Assembly (NCBI GenBank): GCA_000934665.2
Contig: KZ538941.1
Span: 1-39,355, forward strand
Direction of reading: 5' to 3'
Length of the DNA stretch: 39,355 nt
Source: Catajapyx aquilonaris
Lineage: Eukaryota
Positions 15,419 through 38,572 of this stretch are shown here, one piece after another; position 1 is the stretch's first letter, and every line of letters starts with the position of its first letter. The notes under the pieces were generated by a model. The model had not been told where the DNA came from, ran no database searches, and was given only the letters and a program-made list of their open reading frames with translations. A program made the position numbers and the translations under genes.

Positions 15419-16543
15419 TCAACTCTGCTTCACTCTCTTACGCGGGGGTCCAATTGGGGGGATTTGTTGTGTTGCGAGTGCACGAAAAGCCTCAGCAATT
15501 AAGTGTGGGTGAGAATGGATCATAGACTTCCACCCTGTAGTGTCCATAACATCAGTTGCATGGGTGTTGATGAAGTCAATAGCTTGGGCTTTTAGTTGAT
15601 CAGCACTATGAAGGTCCGCCAGGATCAGAATGTCAGCAGCATTCTCAATGGACAAGTTGGTACACAGTGCCTCTTCACACATCACTTTTAGCCGCTCGAG
15701 AGCATACTTGTCAGCTGCCGCCAAGAGATCATCTGCCATTTTGTCCAAATTGACAGCCTTCCCTGTGTAAATGAATCGAAGCATCTCCCGCAGCACCTCA
15801 TGATCAACATCAGTAATCTCCACACGGTTGTGTTTGCGCTCCTCCATTTCATGTTCAAACATGGCAGCAAAAACCGGGCTGCGTGCTGCTAATATGGCCT
15901 TATGAGCTTGAAACTCCCTTCCAGAAACTGACAAAGTCACATCACTAAACTTCTGATTTTCAAAGAGCATGCCAAGATCATCCGACAGGCGGCATTCAGG
16001 CACCTTAAACTGTACTGCATTGGATTGACCTGAGATGTTTACACTGTCTGCTACAACACTCACTTCACAAAATATGGTCAACTTGTCATCTGGAAGAAGC
16101 CCATTAGCTTCATCAAATAAAAAGTCACGCCTAATGAACTTCTTGAATCCCCAATCTTTTCCCTGCACAAACCTGTAAGCTCTCTGGCTTTCCATAGCCT
16201 TTGTTTCCTCCCTCTTGGCATTAAGAATGGAGAACTTGAACTTGGCCCGCACTTCTGACTTGTTACAGGAGACTAGGAGTAAATATAATGACAGGTAGTC
16301 TTTGCTTTCTTCGTCTAATCCTTTGGGATTGACACGCAAGCACCACTTCAGTTTGTCATTGGCCCCCGCCGAAAATGTTGAGGACTTGAGAACCTCACCC
16401 ATTTCTTCTCTACAAAAACTGAAGTTATTGATGGTCCACATGTAGCTAAATTTCACTACCTTTACTTGTGTGTAACACCAATTCTCTGCCACTGGGGTGT
16501 TCACTTCAGGTGGCGGAGGGCTTGGCACTCGAGACACTGCCAT
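15419..16543 (-). CDS. rdx: Roadkill/SPOP, MATH-BTB Cullin-3 substrate adaptor, 374 aa, core CDS in one exon
   Basis: [28 protein letters not shown] start, MATH domain ([29 protein letters not shown]), BTB domain ([23 protein letters not shown]), BACK-like helices and C-terminal [12 protein letters not shown]. The exon extends in frame to a TTTCTTTCAG acceptor, exon start 16617. Confidence 0.98.
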
Positions 16544-17620
16544 GTTCGGGGTGTTGGTGCTAACTCGATCAGCTTGCCCTGCCAGGTTTACCGGATCTTT
16601 GACACCAGCAAAGAAAGCTGAAAGAAAGTAGATTAATGAATTTACACAGGTAAAACTTTCAATGACATGTTAACCTTCTGCTTCTTGGGTATGCCTTAAA
16701 ATGCACATATGGAAAAAATTCACATATTTGATTCACAGGTGAAATAAATCTTCTCAGTGGTGATATCACATGCAGAGTGCTAGGCTGCTTTGCCAAATCC
16801 ACTTTATGCTTGACAGTATACATGTGTAAATGTGGGCAAGATCATAACATGTATCACAATGATATTCAATGCTGACAGTGACTGGCAGAGCAAGCATTGC
16901 TGACAGGATTGGCTTGCGAGAGACTGCCAGTAGGTGGTTGTTTCTTCCCCAGAAATATCACACAAACCCGGTCATATGGAACACCCAGACAAGCATGCTC
17001 TTGATGGAGGTTGAAAATTTTTTTTTCCCAAGAGGAAAACTTGTTAAAATTCATAAAATAATTATTCTCATACTGCACCGGTTGTGAGAGAATCGTCTGC
17101 GACCTAACCTTCCATGGTCTTGCAGGGCATCCCTTGGCCAAACTTTTAAATGTAACCTTGTCTTTCACATGTCAATAATGAAACATCAGCAAGTGACTTT
17201 TGCTGACCCCTCCCCTGTAAAACAAATTAGCAAAAGGGGACCATCCAACAAGAGTTAAAACACCTAAGCCTCTACAGTGATAAACCCTGTCATTTTATAG
17301 CTCTACCTGAGTTACATATGCTATAGAAAAAAAAATATATCTCAACATAGCTAAGGATATCAAGACGGAAAAGAGGAATGACTCCCATCTTTATCCCCTT
17401 AAACCATAAGAAGAAGATACCGACAATAAATTGTTCCCATTCAACCTGAATATGGTCACCAAGGTTGTGAATAACCTTGCTTGACTGATGGGGAAGCCAT
17501 TGAATGCCATTCATTTTGCAACCAGGGTTGATATCAGCTATAAATAATGCAGCTGCCTGGTCCAGTTCAGTCATGTTTTGAAGTCCTTTTATGCATTTTA
17601 CTTGCACACAACCCCTTTTA

Positions 17621-26332: not shown

Positions 26333-26383
26333 NNNNNNNNNNNNNNNNNNNNNNNNNNNNNNNNNNNNNNNNNNNNNNNNNNN
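26333..26383. other. Assembly gap (51 N) in a G-rich tract
   Basis: N run flanked by G homopolymer tracts. Confidence 0.99.
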
Positions 26384-27329: not shown

Positions 27330-27475
27330 TCACTTTTTGGACAAATATGTCAAATAGTGGCAAGCAGTCCGTGCTGCCTCCACCTCTGCATCCTCATGTG
27401 ATGTGCCAGCAGTGCCATAGCACACTGCCAATGGGTCTTGCAGAGGACCCAGCCGGACCAGGCACCGGTATAAGC
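27330..27475 (-). CDS. Last coding exon: second half of dsRBD3-type domain
   Basis: Acceptor TTCACCTGCAG, phase 1. Encodes GLYRCLVRLGPLQDPLAVCYGTAGTSHEDAEVEAARTACHYLTYLSKK*, which aligns with the human TRBP C-terminus as I recall it (GLCRCLVELSTQPATVCHGSATTREAARGEAARRALQYLKIMAGSK). Confidence 0.9.
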
Positions 27476-30400
27476 CTGCAGGTGAATGCAAAGAAATCAG
27501 TCTTGCATGCTCTGTGAGAGAAACTATTTAAGGTGAGGTTAAAATGGCAGGCACTACTTCATCAAATTGCTAAAAATAATGGTTAGTTTCTTTGATAACA
27601 TGCAGAAAAAACCCAGATAAATGGGCAAATCACATCAATCAGTGATCTTGCTCCTTCATTCAATTGACTGATTGGTATACTCTACATGAACTACCAGTAA
27701 CTTCTCAATAGTCCATAACTATCGATAGGTTTTTAAAGAAGTATACAACAGCTCACCTGCTGTTGTTGTCGGCATTTGGATGAAAGCTACATCCCATTTC
27801 TCAGCGATCGCAATCTTTCTCAGGATTGTGGCAAAGTTAGGCGGTTTCTTCTCGGTGGCCTGAAAAAGATTTTTGAGTCGAAGAAATACATCACGGGAAA
27901 TGTTTAACATCAAGACCAGCACCAAATCACAACAGATATTTGCAAGTAAACAGGTGCCCTTTCAACAAATTCAAAGGCATCTCTCAAGAACATTGTGAAC
28001 AGGCTAACCATAACAGCTCTGATAGTAAAACATGAGAATAGGTGATATGACCTCAGAACATGAGCCAACAATGAATAAGCTTCATTCCCTGAAAAAATGG
28101 CCCAGTAGCCTACAGCTTCATAGTTTCAATCCCCCAAATAGAGAATCATCATTTACCCGCATCAAAGATGGTCCATCATTGACCTGCAGGGCCCACCCTT
28201 CCTTAATTTGTTCCTTATCCAACCAGTCATCTGCACTTCTATTTTTCAAGATATCCAGCAATAACTAGCATCAGCTAGCATGTAATCACGGCTAGCATCA
28301 ACCCTTTCCCCACTAGCATCAATTAATGCTGAGCTGTTAACATTGGGCCAGGCAGGTAGGGATTCTCCTCAATGATGGGCTTTGAGGTCTCACGTGGTAC
28401 AGTACCTTGGTTGGAACATTGGGATCTTGCACATACACCCCAGATGCCCGATGGGATGCAGACGTTGAAGTTGGGTCCCTTGGTTGTGAGCTTGGGATTG
28501 GCCCAAAATTTGTCTCTTTCCCGCATCTGCAAGAGTGCAGTTAAAAAATTAGCAAAATTGATCTCACAATACCGTATTACTTCATGCAAAGCAACATGCC
28601 GGTGTCGTCCATGGTTCATGTCCACCAGTTTAAAATTAAAAATTAAAATTAGAAATTATTCATGATCTGGTGGCAGCATACTAGGAATGCCAGTATGAGG
28701 CGAGGTTCTCACTTACATTAGCCTTTTATAACTTGATATTTGCTTGAAATCGAAATCCATGAATACAGGCTTGTATCGAAAAGGCACATCTTCAGAATCT
28801 AATACCGTATAGGCCTACAGTAGGCTATGTTCTTTTGAATCTTTTCAATTACAGTGTGTGACAATAATTTGTATGTGCAGTGCATTGTTGTGGAGTACAG
28901 CGATAACTTGATACTTTCACGATCCCCGCTTCGCTGAATTTCTTGGGAGATACAATTATTCGATATTAGCCATTTCATTTATAAATATTACCAATATTTG
29001 GATATTATTAGCTACCTAGCAGTGTGCCTGAAGTATAAAATCAATGAGACCTGCGACAGCAGACGATGGTATTGGTCATGCACTGTGCAACAGCCCTGTA
29101 CTCGCACATTTTTCACCATAACATTATTTCAGTATGGTACCACAAGAATGCAAAATTTTTTTGACTAGGATCAAAATGATGGAAATCTAGGGTTTATTGC
29201 AGCATGCCAGCTACCCCCGGGTTATACCAGCATACTGGTCAATCTTGTCTTATACCGGCATGCCGCTTTATGACAGGTAATACGGTAGGTGCGTAGGTGC
29301 ATTGTCAACCTCTAATTATGGCAAATCAATACATAGGTGCAAAGACTCCAAGTGGTTTGCCTTTCTTGTTCCCACAATTTTTAATCCTATGCAATAAGCA
29401 TAGGGTTTCATGTAAGTGACATCGAACTGCTGAATATGCTTTTGTGATTCATTTTGGTTCTTTCTACCCTGTGCAGCAGGATTGCTAGTTCTTACTCACA
29501 TAATCTGCTTTTGGTCAATTTCTACATATTTTCAGCAACACAGGTTGAAAATCTCATATCTGAAACCCTTATTGGGACAAGACAATTTCAGATTTTTCAA
29601 TAATTGTAATTTAAAAATGTCACAGCACATGTGGTGTGTATGAAAGGTTTGATGAATGTTTCAATAGAAGCAAGAAAACAGCAAACAGGAAACATAGGAA
29701 TTACCTTTATTGACTTTCAAAGTGCCCTCCATCAGACACGACACACTTTTGAAAACATTCGTAAAGCCTCTGAAAAATGTGAGAAAAATTTATCTTTAGA
29801 CCCCCCCCCCTCCCCCCTCCAGATCTGTTGTCACAAGAGCCTGAACCTCCACGACATCCACAAAACGCGATCCCTTCATGAATCCTTTAAGGCTCAGTAT
29901 ATGGTATCACTGTTTTGGATCAACCTCTGTACTACCCCAACCTTTCTCCTGTGGACTTCCTTTTGTTTCATTGTCTTTATGAACGGATCAAGCTTTGTGG
30001 ACATTCCGGCCTGTGCACAGCCATGTGACAAGAGATCTGGAGGGGTTTTTCTAACTGTTCTCAGAAGCTTCACGAAATATTTCAAAAGTGTGTTGTTTGA
30101 TAGCCTGGAGCACTTTGATGGTCAATAAAAGTCATTCCTATGTACCCCTTCTGTTTTGTTATTTTTATTGTAACATTCACCAAACTTTTTAGACACACCA
30201 CATGTGCTGTGACATATTTTAATTGCAAATAGTTCAATATTCCCATAAACTATTAAGGTAACTTTCAAACCAAACATCACATTTTAAGCAAAGTGGTAAG
30301 AAAAATACAGTGTACAGTAGTCGATTCTTTGGGGGAACTACCTAGTGAAACACCCTGTATTTCAAATATTTAAACTGTCTGGTTTTACCTAAAAAGGCAC

Positions 30401-33400
30401 AGTAGGAATGGGTCACCCTCAATAAAGGCAAGACAGCTTGCTTTTCCTTAAAAATAAACAATTCGAGTATTGCACAAAGAAGAAGGAACACTACCTCAAA
30501 ATCAAATAGGTGCATGGACAAGATCCCCCAGAATTATTTATGTTTGTCTTAGCTTCCAAGAAGAGAAACTCTCCTTTTTCACAACCTGTCACTCATGAAA
30601 CCCATGGGAAGGCTATAACCGCCCCTGTTTCATCTGCAACATTTGCACCATGTAAATCTAACACTGTGGGGCGCCTCTTTCCTTGACTCAAAACCAAGAG
30701 GACCAATTTTGCTTTGCTAAATCACCTCTATACACGTACACTCTCATGGAAGATCACACAAGAATGCATCACTTTTTTGGCCTATGACTTTATAGTTTAC
30801 AGTTGTATATTTTCTAATTTGTGCTTACTTTTTGCCTCAAACTTTATCATTATTATTTATTATTATTTTTCCACTTTGTCAATCCAAGGGGTGGGGGATG
30901 GGGCGCCCCCCAGTTGGCCAATATGTGAACTGTATATTTCCATGCACATTCCCACTTGCAACTTTTCTACTTACTTGTTAGTGAAACCCCCTGGAAGTGA
31001 GTTAATAGGATAACCCATTTGCATTTACTGGAGTAAGAACTGTCTGCATGGGAGGGCGCTCGATTTTCAATACGATATATCTTTCATTTTTTTAGACACG
31101 AAATTTTGCGCCGGGGCAGAGGGGCGGTCGCCCCCTCCACGCTACGCCACTGCTTCTCATCACTCTATGTCACCAGTCCCCACAGACCGCCTTCACCGCG
31201 GACCACAGCGGACCGCCTTCATGTACACACAGGCATGTTACCTTCAAAAATAGTTCACATAATCTAATAAGTAATCAGACTTACTTAAATGTCTTTTCCT
31301 TGAATTTTCCATCATCACTGTTCTGGTGACTCGCACCTGCTGGAGAATTATGGCTCACGCATGCTGTAGGGCTTGTAGCTGTTACACGTGCTGTAACAGC
31401 TACATTGCCTTGGCCATGGATACTTAAACTGGAAGAGCCATGTTTTTGCCTTATCATCTCATGCTGTAGGCACATAATCGGCCTATCTGGGGCTAGATCA
31501 CTGCGACCCTGACTTGGTTTCAACTCAAGCAGTATGATGACAGGTACCTCTTCCTTCATCCCCCAATTTTGCAAAGAAGGCTGCTGAAGATCTATGATGT
31601 TTGGGGACATCTTAACCATCCTCACAGCCGAACAATCTTTCAGTAGAGTAGCCACAAAATTTGTAGCTGCAGGTGACCAGTTGATACCCAGCCTGGAAAA
31701 GTCGTAGCAGTGAAGAACTGCATTATTATTTTCAGAAATGATACTATATGTTTTACCCATACATCAGAAAAACAATTAGAGGTTTTAACTACATTTTAAA
31801 AAATTGTGCTGCTCCTTTATAATGGCCACAATCATCATTGCCATCCCACAGAAGTACATGATTAGTGCAGTTAGCACTAACAGATTTTGTGTCTGCTAAA
31901 TTTTGTTAAGATTATCTCATCTGAGCCCGTCTCTTGGGTTTCATTACCACCACAATATGACTACAAATTTTTGAGAGTCCCTCAATACTCTTAAAAAGAC
32001 TAGATATCAGATTGTGTGGGAATGTACTGTTGAAGAATAATTAGGAGCTGGCCTGGCCGGAACGGCCCTGCAGCCCACCAATAATCCCATGGGAATGTAC
32101 TGTAGCATTGATCAACATTTTCTTGCATTTCATCTGCATAGCATAATAATATATTATAACCTCCAAAAGCTAAGTAAGACTGTGGAGAATACACATGCAC
32201 AATCCTGCCACCTGTCTATATACTACCGGGAAAAAACTGCTTGTACCCCTGCAAGAAGTGCCAATGCACGTGTTCCTGAATCAACTGGAAGTCGCAGCAG
32301 CTAGTTGCTAATGCTAGTTTGAGTAGTGCATGCTTCCACGTTCCACCTGCACAGCTATGGCACTGATTGGGGGATACAAGGCACTTTTTTCCAGCAGTGT
32401 ATCACCACAGTGAATCACTTTCTTTTGAATGAAGACCACCAGAGACTTCCCCTATATACTGAGTTCTCTGAAACACAAAAGGCTTTTCTTGCCAATCCCT
32501 GCCACAGTTTATAATCTACGTCGTACAAGCAAAATAAGTTGGTTGCACCTTACAAGAATCATTTTGTACTGTACATTCTTCATGTTTGTGGCATAAGGGC
32601 AACAGGACATGTTCATCATGTGACAAATTTCAATATAAAATCTTTCAATGTATTCCCAATTCAAGTACAATGCTGGGCAAAAAAAGCAAAATAAAAATAA
32701 AAAGCTAAGTTGTTAACCAAGCTAAAATTTTTCCTTTGCAGGTGTGATTGATAAGTAAAATGTACACTCACCCTGTACTCGTCTTTTGGGTGTGTAAGTC
32801 CACCATCTCATTCGTCGGTACCACACCAAAGAGCTTGACCACCATCACCTGGTAGGGCAAGCTCTTGGCCCAGTCAGGTAAACTCCTGATGTTGTAATCA
32901 GGAACTCTTATAGAGTAGCCTCTATCTACCAACATCACGGTGTACTCCATGGTATCATCCAGTTGATGCACCTCTTCCACAACAGCCCTCTGCCACTTTT
33001 TGCTGCTGCTGCCTGCATAAAATGCCGCAACCATCTGTTTAGAAGGAAAGGAGAGTGATATTAATCGCACCTCGGCAATAACAGGGGCACAAGTCCAAAA
33101 AGTCAATTTCACAGGAGAGCACTTTGAAAGTTGTATAGTGTTGGTATAGTGTTATCATAAATCAGGTATTGATGCAGCATTCGAATAATCAGAATTACTA
33201 ATTATTAATTTTTAGAAATCAGAATATGCATTCTGAATGTGCACACGGTCATGGACCCTGCTCTAGTAATAAGTCAAAATCGTCATTGTTGGACTTATGC
33301 CCCTGTTATTGCCGGGATGCGTTATAATAACCAGCTGTGATTTGACTGCTGATGAAGGAATATATGGCACCCACCTCTCTTTCTTCGGGCTCAATCTGGG

Positions 33401-35410
33401 CTGGTGGGTTCATCACATCCTTCTGGAGCTTTTCCTCCATCTCCTTCCGACTGTGGTCATCCTTCGTCTTTGTTCCCATCACTGATTTGGCCTCCTTTAT
33501 CCAAAATACACCTGCACTGCTGACACTCAGCACCTCTATGGGGCACCCATGATCCCACAGGGCTTTCTCACCATCTCCTACAGTTGGCAAAATCTTCTGT
33601 AAGATCTCTTCAGATAGCTGGAAGAATACAAACAATATGGCACATAAGATGCATTTTCCGTGCATTAACACAATCTCCCTGGCTTTTGATGATAAAAATT
33701 TTCTGTCAGCTGTATAATTTTATTTTATTTTTATTCATTTTATTTTATTTTATTTACCTCATGATACAACACTTGGTCGTTATACAGGGGGGTGGCAGAC
33801 CACCATACAGTTTTCTTAATGGTTTTTATCTTCAAACTCAGGTGCAAGGATTACTGGGAAATGGGGTAAGGGTTGGGGGGTTTGGGGAGGGGGCAGGGGA
33901 CACATGTGCAGGTGATTTGTCCAGCGGTGGGCCAGGTGCAGCTGTATAATAAGGATCACTGGATTGAACAACAACAGTGTGACCTTAATGTTACTCAGCG
34001 AGCCACATTACAAGGCACTTCCTAAGTATTACACTCCTTGCTCTGTCAAGGTGAAATACTTCCCAAATTTGGAACAATAAAATGACTAATTCTTCCTAGG
34101 ATATTGATTATGGAACAATAGCGGATGTTGGGGAATTGAAATGCATTATGGCATTTCGGTCTATTGTCTGCAAAATTAATGTCATGCACTCAGTCACTGC
34201 AAAGGTTCCAACATTCCAGGTGAAAGGACAAGGCACAAAATGTATGGGCGAGTGGCCTTCCGTTCGATATGCCTGAAAATGGGATATGTTGTAGCCCAGA
34301 CCGTCCTGATCAATGTTAGATAGGGTCATTTCGAGGTAGGACCTGGTAGGACCTACAGGGAGCGTGCTATGGACCTCTGAAGGTCATATGGGATATGATC
34401 TGGTTTTCCGCTCGATTTGCCTGAAAATGGGATATGTTGCAGCCCAGACCATCCTGATCAATGTGGATAGGGACATTTCGAGGTAGGACCTACAGGGAGC
34501 ATGCTAATTGCTATTCATCGAAGAGGCTACTCAATACCATAGAAGACTGCTGTGAGAGATACCTTCCTTACATTGACCCAATGAATGTTGAAGTGCAGCT
34601 GGAGGAAACTCCAGATGACAACCTTCAAGGAGTAGAATTTGAACCAGATGAATTTGTAATAAAGAATAATAGATAATTTAATGCAATAACCATTGAGTTC
34701 CTGGAGACAAGATTATTGTAGTCTATTACTCCCCCTATTACCTTCGGAGGTCATTAGCAGGCTCCCTGTAGGTCCCACCTGAAAATGTCCCTATGCAACA
34801 TTGATCAGGACGGTCTGGGCTGCAACATATCCAATTATCAGGCATATCGAACGGAAGGCCACTCGCCCATACATTTTGTGCCTTGTCCTTTCGTCATGCA
34901 TCAAAGGCAATTTTCCACTGGCAGCATGTAAAGGAGCAGGAATTAACTTTCCTTAGAAGCCAAATGTATACCTCAAAGTTCTCCATAACTTGAACCTCTG
35001 GCAACAATTTAGTGCAAAGTATATTGCGTGAACTGGAAATCGGAGCAAGTTTAGCTGGCCTGACTTGCACGCACCATCTTTACAACAGAGGTCAGTCGAC
35101 TGTTGCCAGTTGAAGTGAAGCTTTAAACATTAATCGGTCCCTGTCCGGTTAGGTACGGCACCATAGTTCCTGAACATTTCCTTGGGTTCCATAGTCCACA
35201 TAGTTCCATAGTCAGCCGGGACTGATGGAACGCTGTCTGCCCTATATACTGGCATGTCCCGGCTGCTATGGACTTTTCAACATTCACTGGACTGTTCCCC
35301 TCGCCCCATACAAGTCCCTGGAACATGGCACTTACCCGCATCCTCGTTTGCTCATCGCGTCTCTCCTCGTCCGCTCGTCCGAAGCCGTCAATGAAGGCCG
35401 CTTCCATCAT
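27330..35410 (-). CDS. Multi-exon gene: TDRD12-like extended Tudor domain + linker + TRBP/PACT/Loqs-type dsRBD3 (~452 aa, ~488 aa with an optional exon)
   Basis: Exons 35410-35336, 33617-33375, 33034-32772, 31692-31285, 28526-28406, [optional 28264-28157], 27859-27757 and 27475-27330. All introns are GT-AG with compatible phases (0,0,2,2,0,[0],1). The core model totals 1359 nt, ATG to TGA, with no internal stop. Confidence 0.75.
27757..27859 (-). CDS. Coding exon: first half of dsRBD3-type domain (alpha1-beta1)
   Basis: Acceptor ATCTTTTTCAG (phase 0) and donor G|GTGAGC (phase 1). Encodes ATEKKPPNFATILRKIAIAEKWDVAFIQMPTTTA, matching the (D/N)Y..LL.EIA.EQ.F.V.Y.DI pattern of Loqs/PACT dsRBD3. 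Confidence 0.85.
28406..28526 (-). CDS. Linker exon of the Tudor-dsRBD gene
   Basis: Acceptor TTTTTTAACTGCACTCTTGCAG, phase 2 as required by the upstream exon. Encodes CGKETNFGPIPSSQPRDPTSTSASHRASGVYVQDPNVPTK, then donor AAG|GTACTG (alternative CAC|GTGAGA, exon end 28394). Confidence 0.6.
29602..30230. mobile_element. Degenerate fold-back element in an intron
   Basis: Perfect 23-bp inverted pair ATGTCACAGCACATGTGGTGTGT (29617-29639 and 30193-30215), plus further inverted blocks (CACACTTTTGAAA with TTTCAAAAGTGTG; CCCCTCCAGATCT with AGATCTGGAGGGG). Confidence 0.8.
31285..31692 (-). CDS. Coding exon 4: C-terminal SN-like part of the extended Tudor domain plus start of linker
   Basis: Acceptor GACTTTTCCAG, phase 2, 408 nt open, donor AA|GTAAGT. 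Begins LGINWSPAATNFVATLLKD, the W..AA...F..LL signature of extended Tudor domains. Confidence 0.85.
32772..33034 (-). CDS. Coding exon 3: Tudor barrel
   Basis: Acceptor TTTCCTTCTAAACAG and donor GG|GTGAGT. Encodes MVAAFYAGSSSKKWQRAVVEEV..YTVMLVDRGYSIRVPDYNIRSLPDWAKSLPYQVMVVKLFGVVP, matching the Tudor pattern WxRA..V.xxD.G....V....IR.L......LP.QA....L.GV.P. Confidence 0.9.
33375..33617 (-). CDS. Coding exon 2: N-terminal SN-like strands and helix of the extended Tudor domain
   Basis: Acceptor GTATTCTTCCAG and donor GAG|GTGGGT, 243 nt open. IEVLSVSSAGVFWIKE matches the V.V..V.SP..FWV motif of extended Tudor domains. Confidence 0.85.
34222..34892. mobile_element. Non-autonomous DNA element with ~140-bp TIRs and an internal direct duplication
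   Basis: GAAAGGACAAGGCACAAAATGTATGGGCGAGTGGCCTTCCGTTCGATATGCCTGA at 34222 is mirrored ending at 34892. Segment ~34263-34362 is repeated directly at ~34413-34500. No clear TSD. Confidence 0.85.
35336..35410 (-). CDS. Probable first coding exon of the Tudor-dsRBD gene
   Basis: ACCATGATGG start context, MMEAAFIDGFGRADEERRDEQTRMR, and consensus donor CGG|GTAAGT in phase 0, matching exon 2. Confidence 0.7.
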
Positions 35411-35923
35411 GGTCCTGTATTATAATAATTATTTATATGACCTGAACAAAAACTGAAGGGAGGATGGAGTCGGGGGGCAAAGATTAACGCGGATTGAAGA
35501 CCCAGATGACACACAGACACCTATGGCCTCTTCACTGTTCCTTGGTCGGGGGTGGGGGTGGGAGCGAGGTGGGAGGAGAGGGGGGACGGATGACGTGGCC
35601 AGACAACACGGTTCGGCTCGTAGCCGCTAGTAGCTCTGCATCACTGGGCAATGGATGGCGTCTACTACATACGCTATGAATTTCAGCCAAATATTAAGGG
35701 ATATGTGCACAGGTACTTATTTTGTATGAAAATTTATAAGCACGATGTGTTCCAGTCTGAAATTTTATGGGATCGTATTAAAATAGAGAACTCATCCCAT
35801 GAATGCAGCGCCATCATCTTACTAACGAAATAGCGAGATCTGCCTGAGGATCTGCCCGACAAAGTAACACCACCCAACTAGCCGCAGCCCGGTACTTTCC
35901 AAATTTTGAAAATTGTAATGTCA

Positions 35924-38036
35924 TCTATACGTAGCCTACATAATGAGTTTGTTTGTGGAGTTGTTTGTGGCTTCGCTATAGAACTCCAGGGGAATGTCCC
36001 TACACTGCCTTAAACTAGCTCATTGGGGGTTACTTTTTTCGACGCATGTTTCAGCTTCCGACAATGAACCCATGACTCCGACAACACGCATAATTTCACA
36101 TTTCAAATATTCAATTATCACGTTTCTATGACATTTCAAATTCCCATGGAGATGCCCTCACTACACAGAAATTCGTCAGATTTTTAAGCAAGAATTGAGA
36201 CTTTTTACTACTATAGTATTGTTTGAGGGCATCTCCAAGGAAACAGCTAGTTCCAGAGGTGCATTGTCGGAGATATCGTGTGTCCCTCTTCTGTTTCACA
36301 ATGCCTCCAAAGAAGCGTTACACATTATTCCAATCTCCTTCTGCCAAACGCCAGAGAACTAAAAAGCAGCAAAAAACTGCAAAAGAGCGACATTCCCGTC
36401 TACAACTGAAAGTAGTAAGACAAGCTAAACATAGGAAAAAAGAAACTGCAGAAGAGCTCCTCTGCACCCTAAAGAGTCTCTCGATGTGCCATAAATATTT
36501 GGCCGTGATATGTTAAATGGGAGCCGAGATTTAATTCGGGCTTCGAACTTAATGACTGCACCTGAACTGAAATCAGCGAGACAAGCTGAACAGAGGCAGA
36601 AAAGAAACTTCCGAAGAGCTAGAGTCCCGTCTAACTGCAATCAGCCAGACAAGGCAAGGTAAGAACTAATGCATATCGACAGTGGAATCAACGGGCATTT
36701 ATATAACTATGACCCATAGCGACTATGCCATTGACGATTCCATTGCTATTGGTGCGATGATACAAGTATGTCACCGCTGCGGGGCTAAGAAATGGAGCAA
36801 CGAAACAGCAGGAATGTGCTGTTCTAATGGCAACATAAAGTTCCATTTGCTCCTGATCCGCCTGATGAGCCTCTAAGTTTACTCCTCACTGGCACAACTA
36901 AAGAATCCAGGCAATTTCTATCTAATGACAGAAAGTACTGTGCCTTTCAAATGACATCATTTGGGGCCAAGATTGTTACCCAGGTTGCATTTATACCTAC
37001 ATTTAACTACAGGTCCAAGGTCAGGTTTATCACCGGACTGGGACTCTACAGCCTCTTCCAAACGAACAGGCCCAATTTCTGCAGGTTTACTTTGTTGGAG
37101 ATCTACAAACAAGGAACACATGATCGAGTCTGAGAGGCTTTGTTACATTCGGACCCATCAAAAAGAGCTGAGATTAGATTCATATATTCACTTGCGCGAT
37201 GCCATCAGCAGCGATACCGCAGCAACAACTACGCATTCTTCCATCAAGACACTGGCGGCCCGAGATACGTATATGCATGGGCGTACACAAGATCCAATGA
37301 CATGTATGTCAGACACTATATGAAAGACCTGACTTATTCATTACCTTCACTTGCAACTCTAAGTGGAACGAAATTATTGTAGAAGAGCTTCTTCCAGGTC
37401 TAACACCTGAAGATAGACCTGATATTTCAACAGGGGTTTTCCATCTTAAATTACTTAAATTGATGGACCTTGTAAAGAAGGGTCAAGTTTTTGGACCTGT
37501 TCGATGTGACATGTACACTATTGAGTGGCAGAAGAGAGGACTACCACACGCCCATATTCTGATCTGGCTTTCTACTAAAATTCATTCCAATCAGATTGAC
37601 TCCATTATTTCAGCTGAACTGCCTGATCCCTCACTATAGACAAATACATTCTGAAGGCCACAATGGTATATCGTCCATGTGGCAAACTCAATTCCAACTC
37701 TCCTTGCATGGCAGGCGACAAGTGTACCAAAAGATATCCCAGGAAATTCCTAAACGAAACCCGGACAGGAGATGACGGATACCCTTCCTATAGATAGTAT
37801 AGAAGAAGCCCTCAGGATGGTGGATTCACGGCAAAGGTTGGTAGACATAATTATGTGGACAACCAATGGATAGTACCGTACTGTCCCTTGCTGACAAAAG
37901 CTTTTAATGCCCATCTTAATGTGGAATATTTCAACTCCGTTAAGTTCATAAAATATGTATGCAAATATGTAAATAAGGGCTCAGACGCTGCTGCTTTTGC
38001 TCTTCAACAACAAAATGTACACGATGAAGTCACGCT
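35924..38036 (+). mobile_element. 3'-truncated, decayed Helitron (5' end + Rep domain remnant)
   Basis: 5' end A|TCTATAC...GAGTTTGTTTG. Fragments in order: CHRCGAKKWSNETAGMCCSNG (Zn finger), FQMTSFGA, IESERLCYIRTHQKELRLDSYIHLRDAI, LFITFTCN, EWQKRGLPHAHILIWL (HUH motif), DGYPSYR, DNQWIVPYCPLL..AHLNVE..IKYVCKYVNKGSD (YxxKY). Many frameshifts; no helicase or CTAG 3' end seen. Confidence 0.93.
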
Positions 38037-38342
38037 GCAACATGTACCCATACTTGACTTCCCCATTGAACATGTTTCTTACACTAGTATTTGGTTATCT
38101 ATATTTTTTTGGTGGACTTACTGTTTTCCTCAGAAAAAATGTCAGTTGCCTCCTGTTGCCTCCGGTTCCACACGTCTTGTGTGACGGTCTCCATTTTCAT
38201 ACCCTGTTTTCCTCCATGCCATGGTTGGAGAAGGATGTTGTTCCACGACTGACGGAGTTTCATCATTGTTGGGTTCTAGTTGATGTGAGTGTACTTCAAA
38301 TCGGAGACAAGGATTGTGTGATGAGTATTGCATAAGCTATAG

Positions 38343-38572
38343 CATGGGCGTAGCCAGGGGGGGGGGCAGGGGGGNCTTGGCCCGATATTCCGCTGTGTCT
38401 CTGTCCCCATGGACATCATGGCTGAACATCGGCCATATTGGGCTATGTTGCGCCGGCTTCCCCAATGTTGCCCCAATGTTGCCCCCATATTGCTTGCTGC
38501 AGGGGGGAGGATGAGGACAGGTGGGGCCCTCCCCCCCCCCCCCCCCCAACCTAAATCCTGGCTACGCCCATG
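38343..38572. mobile_element. hAT-type MITE with 8-bp TSD
   Basis: TIRs CATGGGCGTAGCCAGG ... CCTGGCTACGCCCATG, with TSD AGCTATAG at 38335-38342 and 38573-38580. Confidence 0.92.

Follow-up and report, generated by a model that had tools for sequence, protein, structure and literature searches.

A candidate gene combining a TDRD12-type extended Tudor domain with a TRBP/Loquacious-type double-stranded RNA-binding domain 3

INTRODUCTION

The biogenesis of PIWI-interacting RNAs (piRNAs) is defined as Dicer-independent, and proteins of the TDRD12 family and of the TRBP/Loquacious (Loqs) family are assigned to separate small-RNA pathways. In Drosophila, the Yb-family proteins BoYb and SoYb are described as TDRD12 orthologues, and SoYb has an extra N-terminal extended Tudor (eTudor) domain (excerpt of PMC12526068). 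In TRBP and Loqs, one surface on double-stranded RNA-binding domain 3 (dsRBD3) is described as serving both dimerization and docking on the Dicer helicase domain (excerpt of PMC4748816). Here we analyse a stretch of 39,355 nucleotides of Catajapyx aquilonaris DNA (contig KZ538941.1, positions 1 to 39,355; "the window" in the following), the minus strand of which may carry a gene that encodes a TDRD12-type eTudor domain followed by a dsRBD3. Each of the two domains is of a known kind, and the combination would be new if real.

Two further systems are of interest for comparison. The tandem Tudor protein ERI-5 of the C. elegans ERI complex lacks a discrete aromatic cage, binds the helicase domain of Dicer, and is described as tethering another small-RNA enzyme to it (PMC13284205). 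In the mouse, the dsRBD protein ADAD2 and the Tudor protein RNF17 of the piRNA pathway are reported to act together (excerpt of PMC10040813).

RESULTS

Exons 2 to 4 and the extended Tudor domain

On the minus strand of the window, seven exons with GT-AG borders run from 35410 to 27330, and all of them were confirmed in the sequence at the positions given by an earlier reading of the bare letters (the original prediction; Table 1). Homology shows that exons 2 to 4 encode a single eTudor domain of the TDRD12 N-terminal type, as had been proposed. Exon 3 alone matches the Pfam Tudor family. A HMMER search with this exon among 1.84 billion representative proteins returned 52 proteins at E <= 0.001, mostly long multi-Tudor proteins, with a top identity of 39%. 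Insect proteins named TDRD12 are 37-40% identical to exon 3. In the reverse direction, a tblastn search with a Locusta protein (P0035, named "RNA helicase", with a Tudor-DEAD-Tudor architecture) reaches exon 3 at E 2e-9. Among PDB sequences, nothing meaningful was found with exon 3.

The relationship extends beyond the Tudor core. Residues 58-219 of the spliced model align in one piece to the N-terminal Tudor of P0035, over both the exon 2/3 and the exon 3/4 junction, and exon 2 contains the start (residue 52-58) of the alignment to TDRD12 N-terminal Tudors. A profile search seeded with such N-terminal Tudors gave 41 proteins, and the top four include P0035 and the Periplaneta and Schistocerca proteins named "putative ATP-dependent RNA helicase TDRD12". 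When the spliced model was compared with the 95 proteins retrieved, TDRD12 N-terminal Tudors made up the strongest three matches and three of the four top single-domain matches. The single-domain scores were 56.7 bits for Locusta, 55.1 bits for Periplaneta and 43.8 bits for Schistocerca; lower scores were obtained for a crinoid protein with the same Tudor-DEAD architecture (26.3 bits) and for fish TDRD12 (24.1 bits).

In a MAFFT alignment, about 14 residues are inserted in the model after the "GVVPT" strand and before the conserved Trp. This insert is common to all four TDRD12-type N-terminal Tudors aligned (P0035, P0029, P0034 and the fragment P0028) and occurs in none of the seven other Tudor domains, the second Tudors of the same proteins included. 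Since the insert spans the exon 3/4 junction, this splice is backed by homology. The original prediction had recognized the insert by means of a human TDRD12 string; the likeness holds in the comparison with database proteins, for which that string was not used.

Canonical, methyl-arginine-binding eTudor domains have a four-residue aromatic cage plus an Asn. At these positions, the model reads WQRA and LVDRGYS, and the canonical domains aligned with it have WYRA and F.DYGN. The model therefore appears to have no canonical methyl-arginine cage. The TDRD12-type N-terminal Tudors likewise have an incomplete cage.

Exons 6 and 7 and the third dsRBD

Sequence matches and structure prediction together show that exons 6 and 7 encode a dsRBD3 of the TRBP/Loqs type, in agreement with the assignment made for the last two exons beforehand. 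With exon 7 alone (59 residues), a phmmer search of the PDB returned six chains at E <= 0.01, all of them TRBP or Loqs dsRBD3. Four are chains of TRBP (best E 1.6e-4, 4wyq_B) and two of Loquacious-PB (best E 1.9e-3, 4x8w_A); the rows after these six, at E about 0.9, are unrelated. Exon 7 is identical to TRBP at 22 of 44 aligned pairs, and to Loqs at 18 of 42. Its frame ends at the same point as Loqs-PB, and TRBP and Loqs end likewise. The ESM features of exon 7 are nearest to dsrm clusters (score 0.90). A Pfam "Dicer_dimer" row for exon 7 (E 0.14) is under any threshold and was not relied on.

The AlphaFold2 model of exon 7 alone has the order strand-strand-strand-helix, with a mean predicted local distance difference test (pLDDT) score of 79. 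Exon 6, folded alone, is predicted to form a helix over residues 9-26 (mean pLDDT 68.5). Together, the two predictions make up the dsRBD order of helix, three strands and helix. Exon 6 alone has no sequence match in the PDB. The exon 7 model without helix 1 had no Foldseek match in the PDB at E <= 0.001, and a wide VIA-align search with it reached a best Z of 5.5, to unrelated chains. A two-chain complex prediction for exon 6 and exon 7 scored 0.10, against a mark of 0.34.

Loqs L426 is described as essential for dimerization and for Dicer-1 binding, and C437 as part of the same surface (excerpt of PMC4748816). In Loqs-PB numbering, L426 (strand 2) stays Leu and C437 (strand 3) stays Cys in exon 7, and F423 is replaced by Tyr. 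Helix 2 begins with acidic residues, at a place where lysines are found in RNA-binding dsRBDs.

Domains absent from the scanned parts of the window

According to the original prediction, neither a helicase nor dsRBD1 and dsRBD2 were visible, and none of them was detected in the parts of the window that were scanned. A Pfam scan of 141 minus-strand open reading frames (ORFs) of at least 28 residues between 27000 and 39355 gave one Tudor domain, four unrelated rows below threshold, and no helicase. None of these 141 upstream ORFs matched dsrm at E <= 0.05, a search that small split exons could slip through. Below 27000 there are 179 ORFs of at least 40 residues; a scan of 150 of them (the other 29 lie below 4558) gave only an SPOP-like MATH-BTB-BACK ORF. 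DEAD or Helicase_C did not match any of the 141 and 150 minus-strand ORFs; helicase exons may lie outside the window. With three TDRD12-type proteins as tblastn queries against the window, only the Tudor exon 3 matched. There was also no second Tudor and no C-terminal CS domain in the scanned parts, the Tudor match being a single one.

The link between the Tudor and dsRBD3 exons

The Tudor and dsRBD3 blocks lie on the same strand, 3.4 kb apart, a spacing similar to that of the other introns. The 3' border of exon 4 coincides exactly with a GTAAGT donor (3.9 bits). This would be rare for the plain end of a terminal ORF and speaks for an internal exon; with the intron retained, translation would stop one codon later. 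Exon 6 starts at a good acceptor (TTTTTCAG/G) and therefore needs upstream exons, and the Tudor exons are the only recognizable coding exons on the same strand within 12 kb upstream of it. Neither AATAAA nor ATTAAA occurs between 28340 and 27000, and a transcript reaching a bridging exon would therefore continue through exons 6 and 7.

Such a bridging exon has to be postulated. The end of exon 4 is in phase 2 and the start of exon 6 in phase 0, a mismatch that calls for an additional exon of 3n+1 bases. The original prediction allowed for two candidates, here called A and B (Table 1). With candidate A, the exons sum to 1395 nt and an open frame of 464 amino acids; with candidate B, they sum to 1356 nt, or 452 codons including the stop. 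The predicted length of 452 thus applies to the version with exon 28238-28157, and not to the one with exon 28526-28406. Candidate A ranks second of 130 by a crude splice score. Candidate B has a codon-usage score of 0.30, in the top 1% of intron controls, yet two other windows of the gap rank above it. The codon usage is decisive for neither candidate. Neither has a family match; candidate A has no PDB match either, and a PDB search with the ORF around candidate B gave only a chance-level row (E 0.37). A 110-codon open frame without a family match (28323-28655, minus strand) overlaps candidate A in another frame, with its Met exactly at the acceptor.

A number of observations weigh against a single gene. 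The phase mismatch rules out that exon 4 is spliced straight to exon 6, and as many as 130 stop-free AG...GT exons of 3n+1 length could bridge the two. The phase compatibility of the exons, which had been put forward in support of the gene, is real, but for this reason carries no weight at the one join that matters here. The donor of candidate A is weak (0.87 bits, versus 3.9-6.8 for the other donors), and its codon-usage score, in the top 10% of intron controls, is no better than that of the other two frames. The acceptor of candidate B is poor and purine-rich, and its donor scores 2.9 bits. The exon 4-exon 6 link is not beyond chance, and the bridging exon is unsupported. An AATAAA is found 420 nt beyond the in-frame stop after exon 4, which makes a Tudor-only transcript possible, and exon 5, read onward, hits a stop after 22 codons.

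Relatives of a fused protein are also missing from the collections searched. Pfam dsrm matched none of the 41 proteins from the profile search, and none of the 95 retrieved Tudor proteins has a dsRBD3-like tail. No orthologue was found in word-based searches with exon 3 and with exon 7, which covered longer proteins only and gave no match each, and the best match to exon 3 is only 39-40% identical. The only metagenome match to exon 7 (L001) was discarded as a bacterial contig that meets an 8-residue pattern by chance. A full-text search of the literature turned up no protein that combines Tudor with a TRBP-type dsRBD, which does not prove that there is none in print. On the putative Dicer-docking surface, F419 of Loqs is described as contributing to Dicer-1 binding, and K460 and I461 as doing so modestly (excerpt of PMC4748816). 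In Loqs-PB numbering, F419 is replaced by Pro, K460 by Thr and I461 by Tyr. With F419 and K460 changed in this way, Dicer binding is not assured.

On balance, we assign a probability of roughly 0.4 to one spliced gene that encodes both the TDRD12-type Tudor and the dsRBD3.

Features of the locus and its surroundings

The coordinates are collected in Table 1. For exon 1, the context of the start codon is good and the donor is strong, but no homology supports it; the exon lies at the edge of the stretch with raised CpG. The splice scores of exon 2 are 3.2 bits for the acceptor and 4.6 bits for the donor, and the donor of exon 6 (CAG/GTGAGC) scores 6.8 bits. In exons 2, 3, 4, 6 and 7, the codon usage in frame clearly beats that of the other two frames, with the same exons being part of the training set.

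Table 1. Predicted exons and associated features of the locus (positions in the window)
Feature	Positions	Strand	Description	Basis
CpG-richer stretch	35201..36800		5' of exon 1; possible promoter	CpG observed/expected 0.71-0.87 vs 0.46 in whole window
Exon 1	35336..35410	-	Candidate first coding exon, 25 codons, starts ATGATGG	Good start context; CGG/GTAAGT donor, 6.4 bits
Exon 2	33375..33617	-	Predicted N-terminal part of extended Tudor: first strands and helix	Spliced-model alignment
Exon 3	32772..33034	-	Predicted Tudor core and beginning of TDRD12-type insert	Pfam PF00567, E 6.1e-7
Exon 4	31285..31692	-	Ends in TAA/GTAAGT donor, phase 2	Alignment crosses exon 3/4 junction to model residue 219
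Bridging exon, candidate A	28406..28526	-	121 nt; Pro/Ser/Thr-rich peptide in needed frame	Splice score
Bridging exon, candidate B	28157..28238	-	82 nt; gives 452 codons	Codon-usage score
Exon 6	27757..27859	-	Predicted helix 1 of dsRBD3-like domain	Predicted helix alone; splice borders
Exon 7	27330..27511	-	Predicted strands 1-3 and helix 2 of dsRBD3-like domain; stop at 27332-27330	PDB phmmer; AlphaFold2

The window is animal DNA: it carries spliced genes, a Helitron, and repeats resembling miniature inverted-repeat transposable elements (MITEs), and its CpG observed/expected ratio is 0.46. Downstream of the dsRBD3 stop, at a distance of 10.7 kb and on the same strand, a complete SPOP-like protein is encoded in an uninterrupted frame of 416 codons (15422-16669, minus strand), with MATH (E 9.5e-36), BTB (E 7.4e-33) and SPOP BACK (E 3e-10) domains. 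An intronless SPOP is unusual, and the ORF may be a retrogene. On the opposite strand, 1.5 kb upstream of exon 1, fragments of a Helitron Rep protein lie in shifted frames (36955-38335, plus strand); Helitron_like_N matches at 37301-37639 (E 6.4e-28), with a weaker row at 36955-37323 (E 0.0025). MITE-like inverted repeats are present in intron 1 (34222-34892; 123-nt arms, 93% complementary) and in intron 4 (29592-30240; 90-nt arms, 81% complementary). Intron 4 also contains a 400-nt bin (30801-31200) with a CpG observed/expected ratio of 0.71, compared to 0.46 for the window, which is a possible internal promoter for a dsRBD3-only transcript. Downstream of the dsRBD3 stop, an assembly gap of 51 N (26333-26383) follows after about 1 kb, and position 38375 holds a single N.

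DISCUSSION

If the seven exons belong together, the locus would be an unannotated animal gene on the minus strand, with a short first exon followed by the Tudor exons 2 to 4, which a small linker exon would most likely join to the two terminal dsRBD3 exons. The product, of about 450-465 residues, would have neither a helicase nor an RNA-binding dsRBD. Its dsRBD3 would be of the non-RNA-binding kind and could dock, with its strand-2/strand-3 surface, on the helicase domain of a Dicer; alternatively, it might pair with the dsRBD3 of the cell's own TRBP, Loqs or PACT. The Tudor domain, lacking the cage, might hold a piRNA-pathway partner through another surface, as other non-canonical eTudors do. 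Binding of partners by a non-canonical surface is described for other cage-less eTudors (excerpt of PMC12526068). The most likely role of the protein would then be that of an adaptor, or of a decoy that competes with Dicer's normal cofactor. It is rather doubtful that the seven exons form one expressed gene with either of these roles, bringing Dicer or its cofactor to the TDRD12-type piRNA machinery of the nuage, or occupying Dicer's cofactor site as a decoy in the germline.

The two blocks may instead be separate units, an arrangement that we regard as somewhat unlikely. A short, Tudor-only TDRD12 paralogue would then end after exon 4 or in an extended exon 5, with a partial duplicate of the 3' end of the species' own TRBP/Loqs gene downstream of it. 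This duplicate would be a non-functional relic of recent origin, or else yield a small product that consists of the dsRBD3 alone and is expressed separately. A short isoform with only the Tudor domain is also known for mammalian TDRD12. The chance level of the exon 4-exon 6 link and the lack of the fused architecture among the retrieved proteins agree with such a split. Moreover, exon 5 could be terminal in view of the stop 22 codons on, and the open frame of exon 6 has an in-frame Met 17 codons upstream of the exon. However, decay would be expected of a relic, and here all 94 codons are intact along with two acceptors, one donor and the stop, and the interface residues equivalent to L426 and C437 are kept. 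The start of exon 6 exactly at a good acceptor also speaks against such a split, as does the absence of a poly(A) signal from the stop of the extended exon 5 to the dsRBD3 exons. Both blocks might also be gene pieces that are not transcribed, for instance ones that a transposon captured and relocated in this repeat-rich region. The Helitron Rep fragment 1.5 kb upstream, the MITE-like inverted repeats that fill the introns, and the failure to find exon 3 itself, or any relative more than 40% identical, in a library of 1.8 billion proteins would fit this view. It is nevertheless improbable, since all frames and splice sites are intact, the codon usage in exons 2, 3, 4, 6 and 7 favours the coding frame (with the reservation that these exons were in the training set), and the Helitron ORFs face away on the opposite strand.

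Only one of the blocks might also be part of a larger gene. Exons 6 and 7 could be the end of the organism's ordinary TRBP/Loqs gene, with dsRBD1 and dsRBD2 past the right end of the window and the Tudor gene nested in a long intron. The dsRBD3 is as close to human TRBP (22 of 44 pairs) as would be expected of true orthologues from different phyla, and has the same end point as TRBP and Loqs. For this arrangement, however, one intron would have to exceed 11.5 kb and contain both a gene on the same strand and a Helitron. The remaining introns of the locus measure 0.2-2.8 kb, and none of the 141 upstream ORFs matched dsrm; we consider the arrangement a long shot. Conversely, the Tudor exons could be the 5' end of a full-length TDRD12 gene with helicase exons more than 31 kb downstream, past the SPOP-like gene, so that the dsRBD3 exons would be an alternative 3' end or an intronic bystander. 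In favour of this, the Tudor belongs to the TDRD12 N-terminal type, a donor closes exon 4, and in TDRD12 proteins about 500 poorly conserved residues separate this Tudor from the helicase. Against such a long gene, which seems to us a very unlikely solution, stand the tblastn searches with the three TDRD12-type proteins, which matched only the Tudor exon in the whole window, the 150 scanned of 179 downstream ORFs, which gave only SPOP domains, and the intact gene on the same strand in between.

If the single Tudor-dsRBD3 gene is real, it would have a domain combination that is present in no retrieved protein, and would tie the piRNA pathway directly and physically to the Dicer pathway. A natural protein that consists of only a TDRD12 docking Tudor and a Dicer-docking dsRBD3 would be a ready-made test of pathway cross-talk. 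It would also be a clean case of exon shuffling, in which an adaptor arose from two protein-binding modules, with the enzymatic and RNA-binding parts stripped. Even if the blocks are separate, the locus has a Tudor gene of the TDRD12 type without a helicase, and a dsRBD3 that is intact and isolated, each of which is unusual.

With respect to its N-terminal half, the predicted protein most resembles TDRD12 and Drosophila SoYb. TDRD12-type proteins are the best match over the whole domain of 160 residues, and the insert before the conserved Trp, the incomplete aromatic cage and the N-terminal position of the domain are shared features. The differences from TDRD12 and SoYb are that a DEAD-box core, a second Tudor and a CS domain were not detected in the parts of the window that were scanned, and that the predicted protein has about 460 residues rather than 1400-2200. 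The C-terminal half is most similar to TRBP (TARBP2), PACT and Loquacious-PB, with exon 7 matching only TRBP/Loqs dsRBD3 chains in the PDB (E <= 0.01), the residues equivalent to L426 and C437 kept, an acidic start of helix 2, and the same end point. Unlike in these proteins, dsRBD1 and dsRBD2 were not found in the scanned upstream ORFs, and F419 and K460 are Pro and Thr. A counterpart of the Dicer-binding linker helix of Loqs-PB was not recognized here.

For the protein as a whole, the comparison is with systems that are alike in description or function rather than in sequence. The ADAD2-RNF17 pair, likened by description only, differs in consisting of two separate proteins, and the ADAD2 dsRBD is not a TRBP-type dsRBD3. 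ERI-5, likened by function and not by sequence, contacts Dicer via its Tudor domains, has no dsRBD, and belongs to the endogenous small interfering RNA pathway and not to the piRNA pathway. ERI-5 works as the proposed adaptor would, and is a functional precedent for a Tudor protein that tethers factors to the Dicer helicase.

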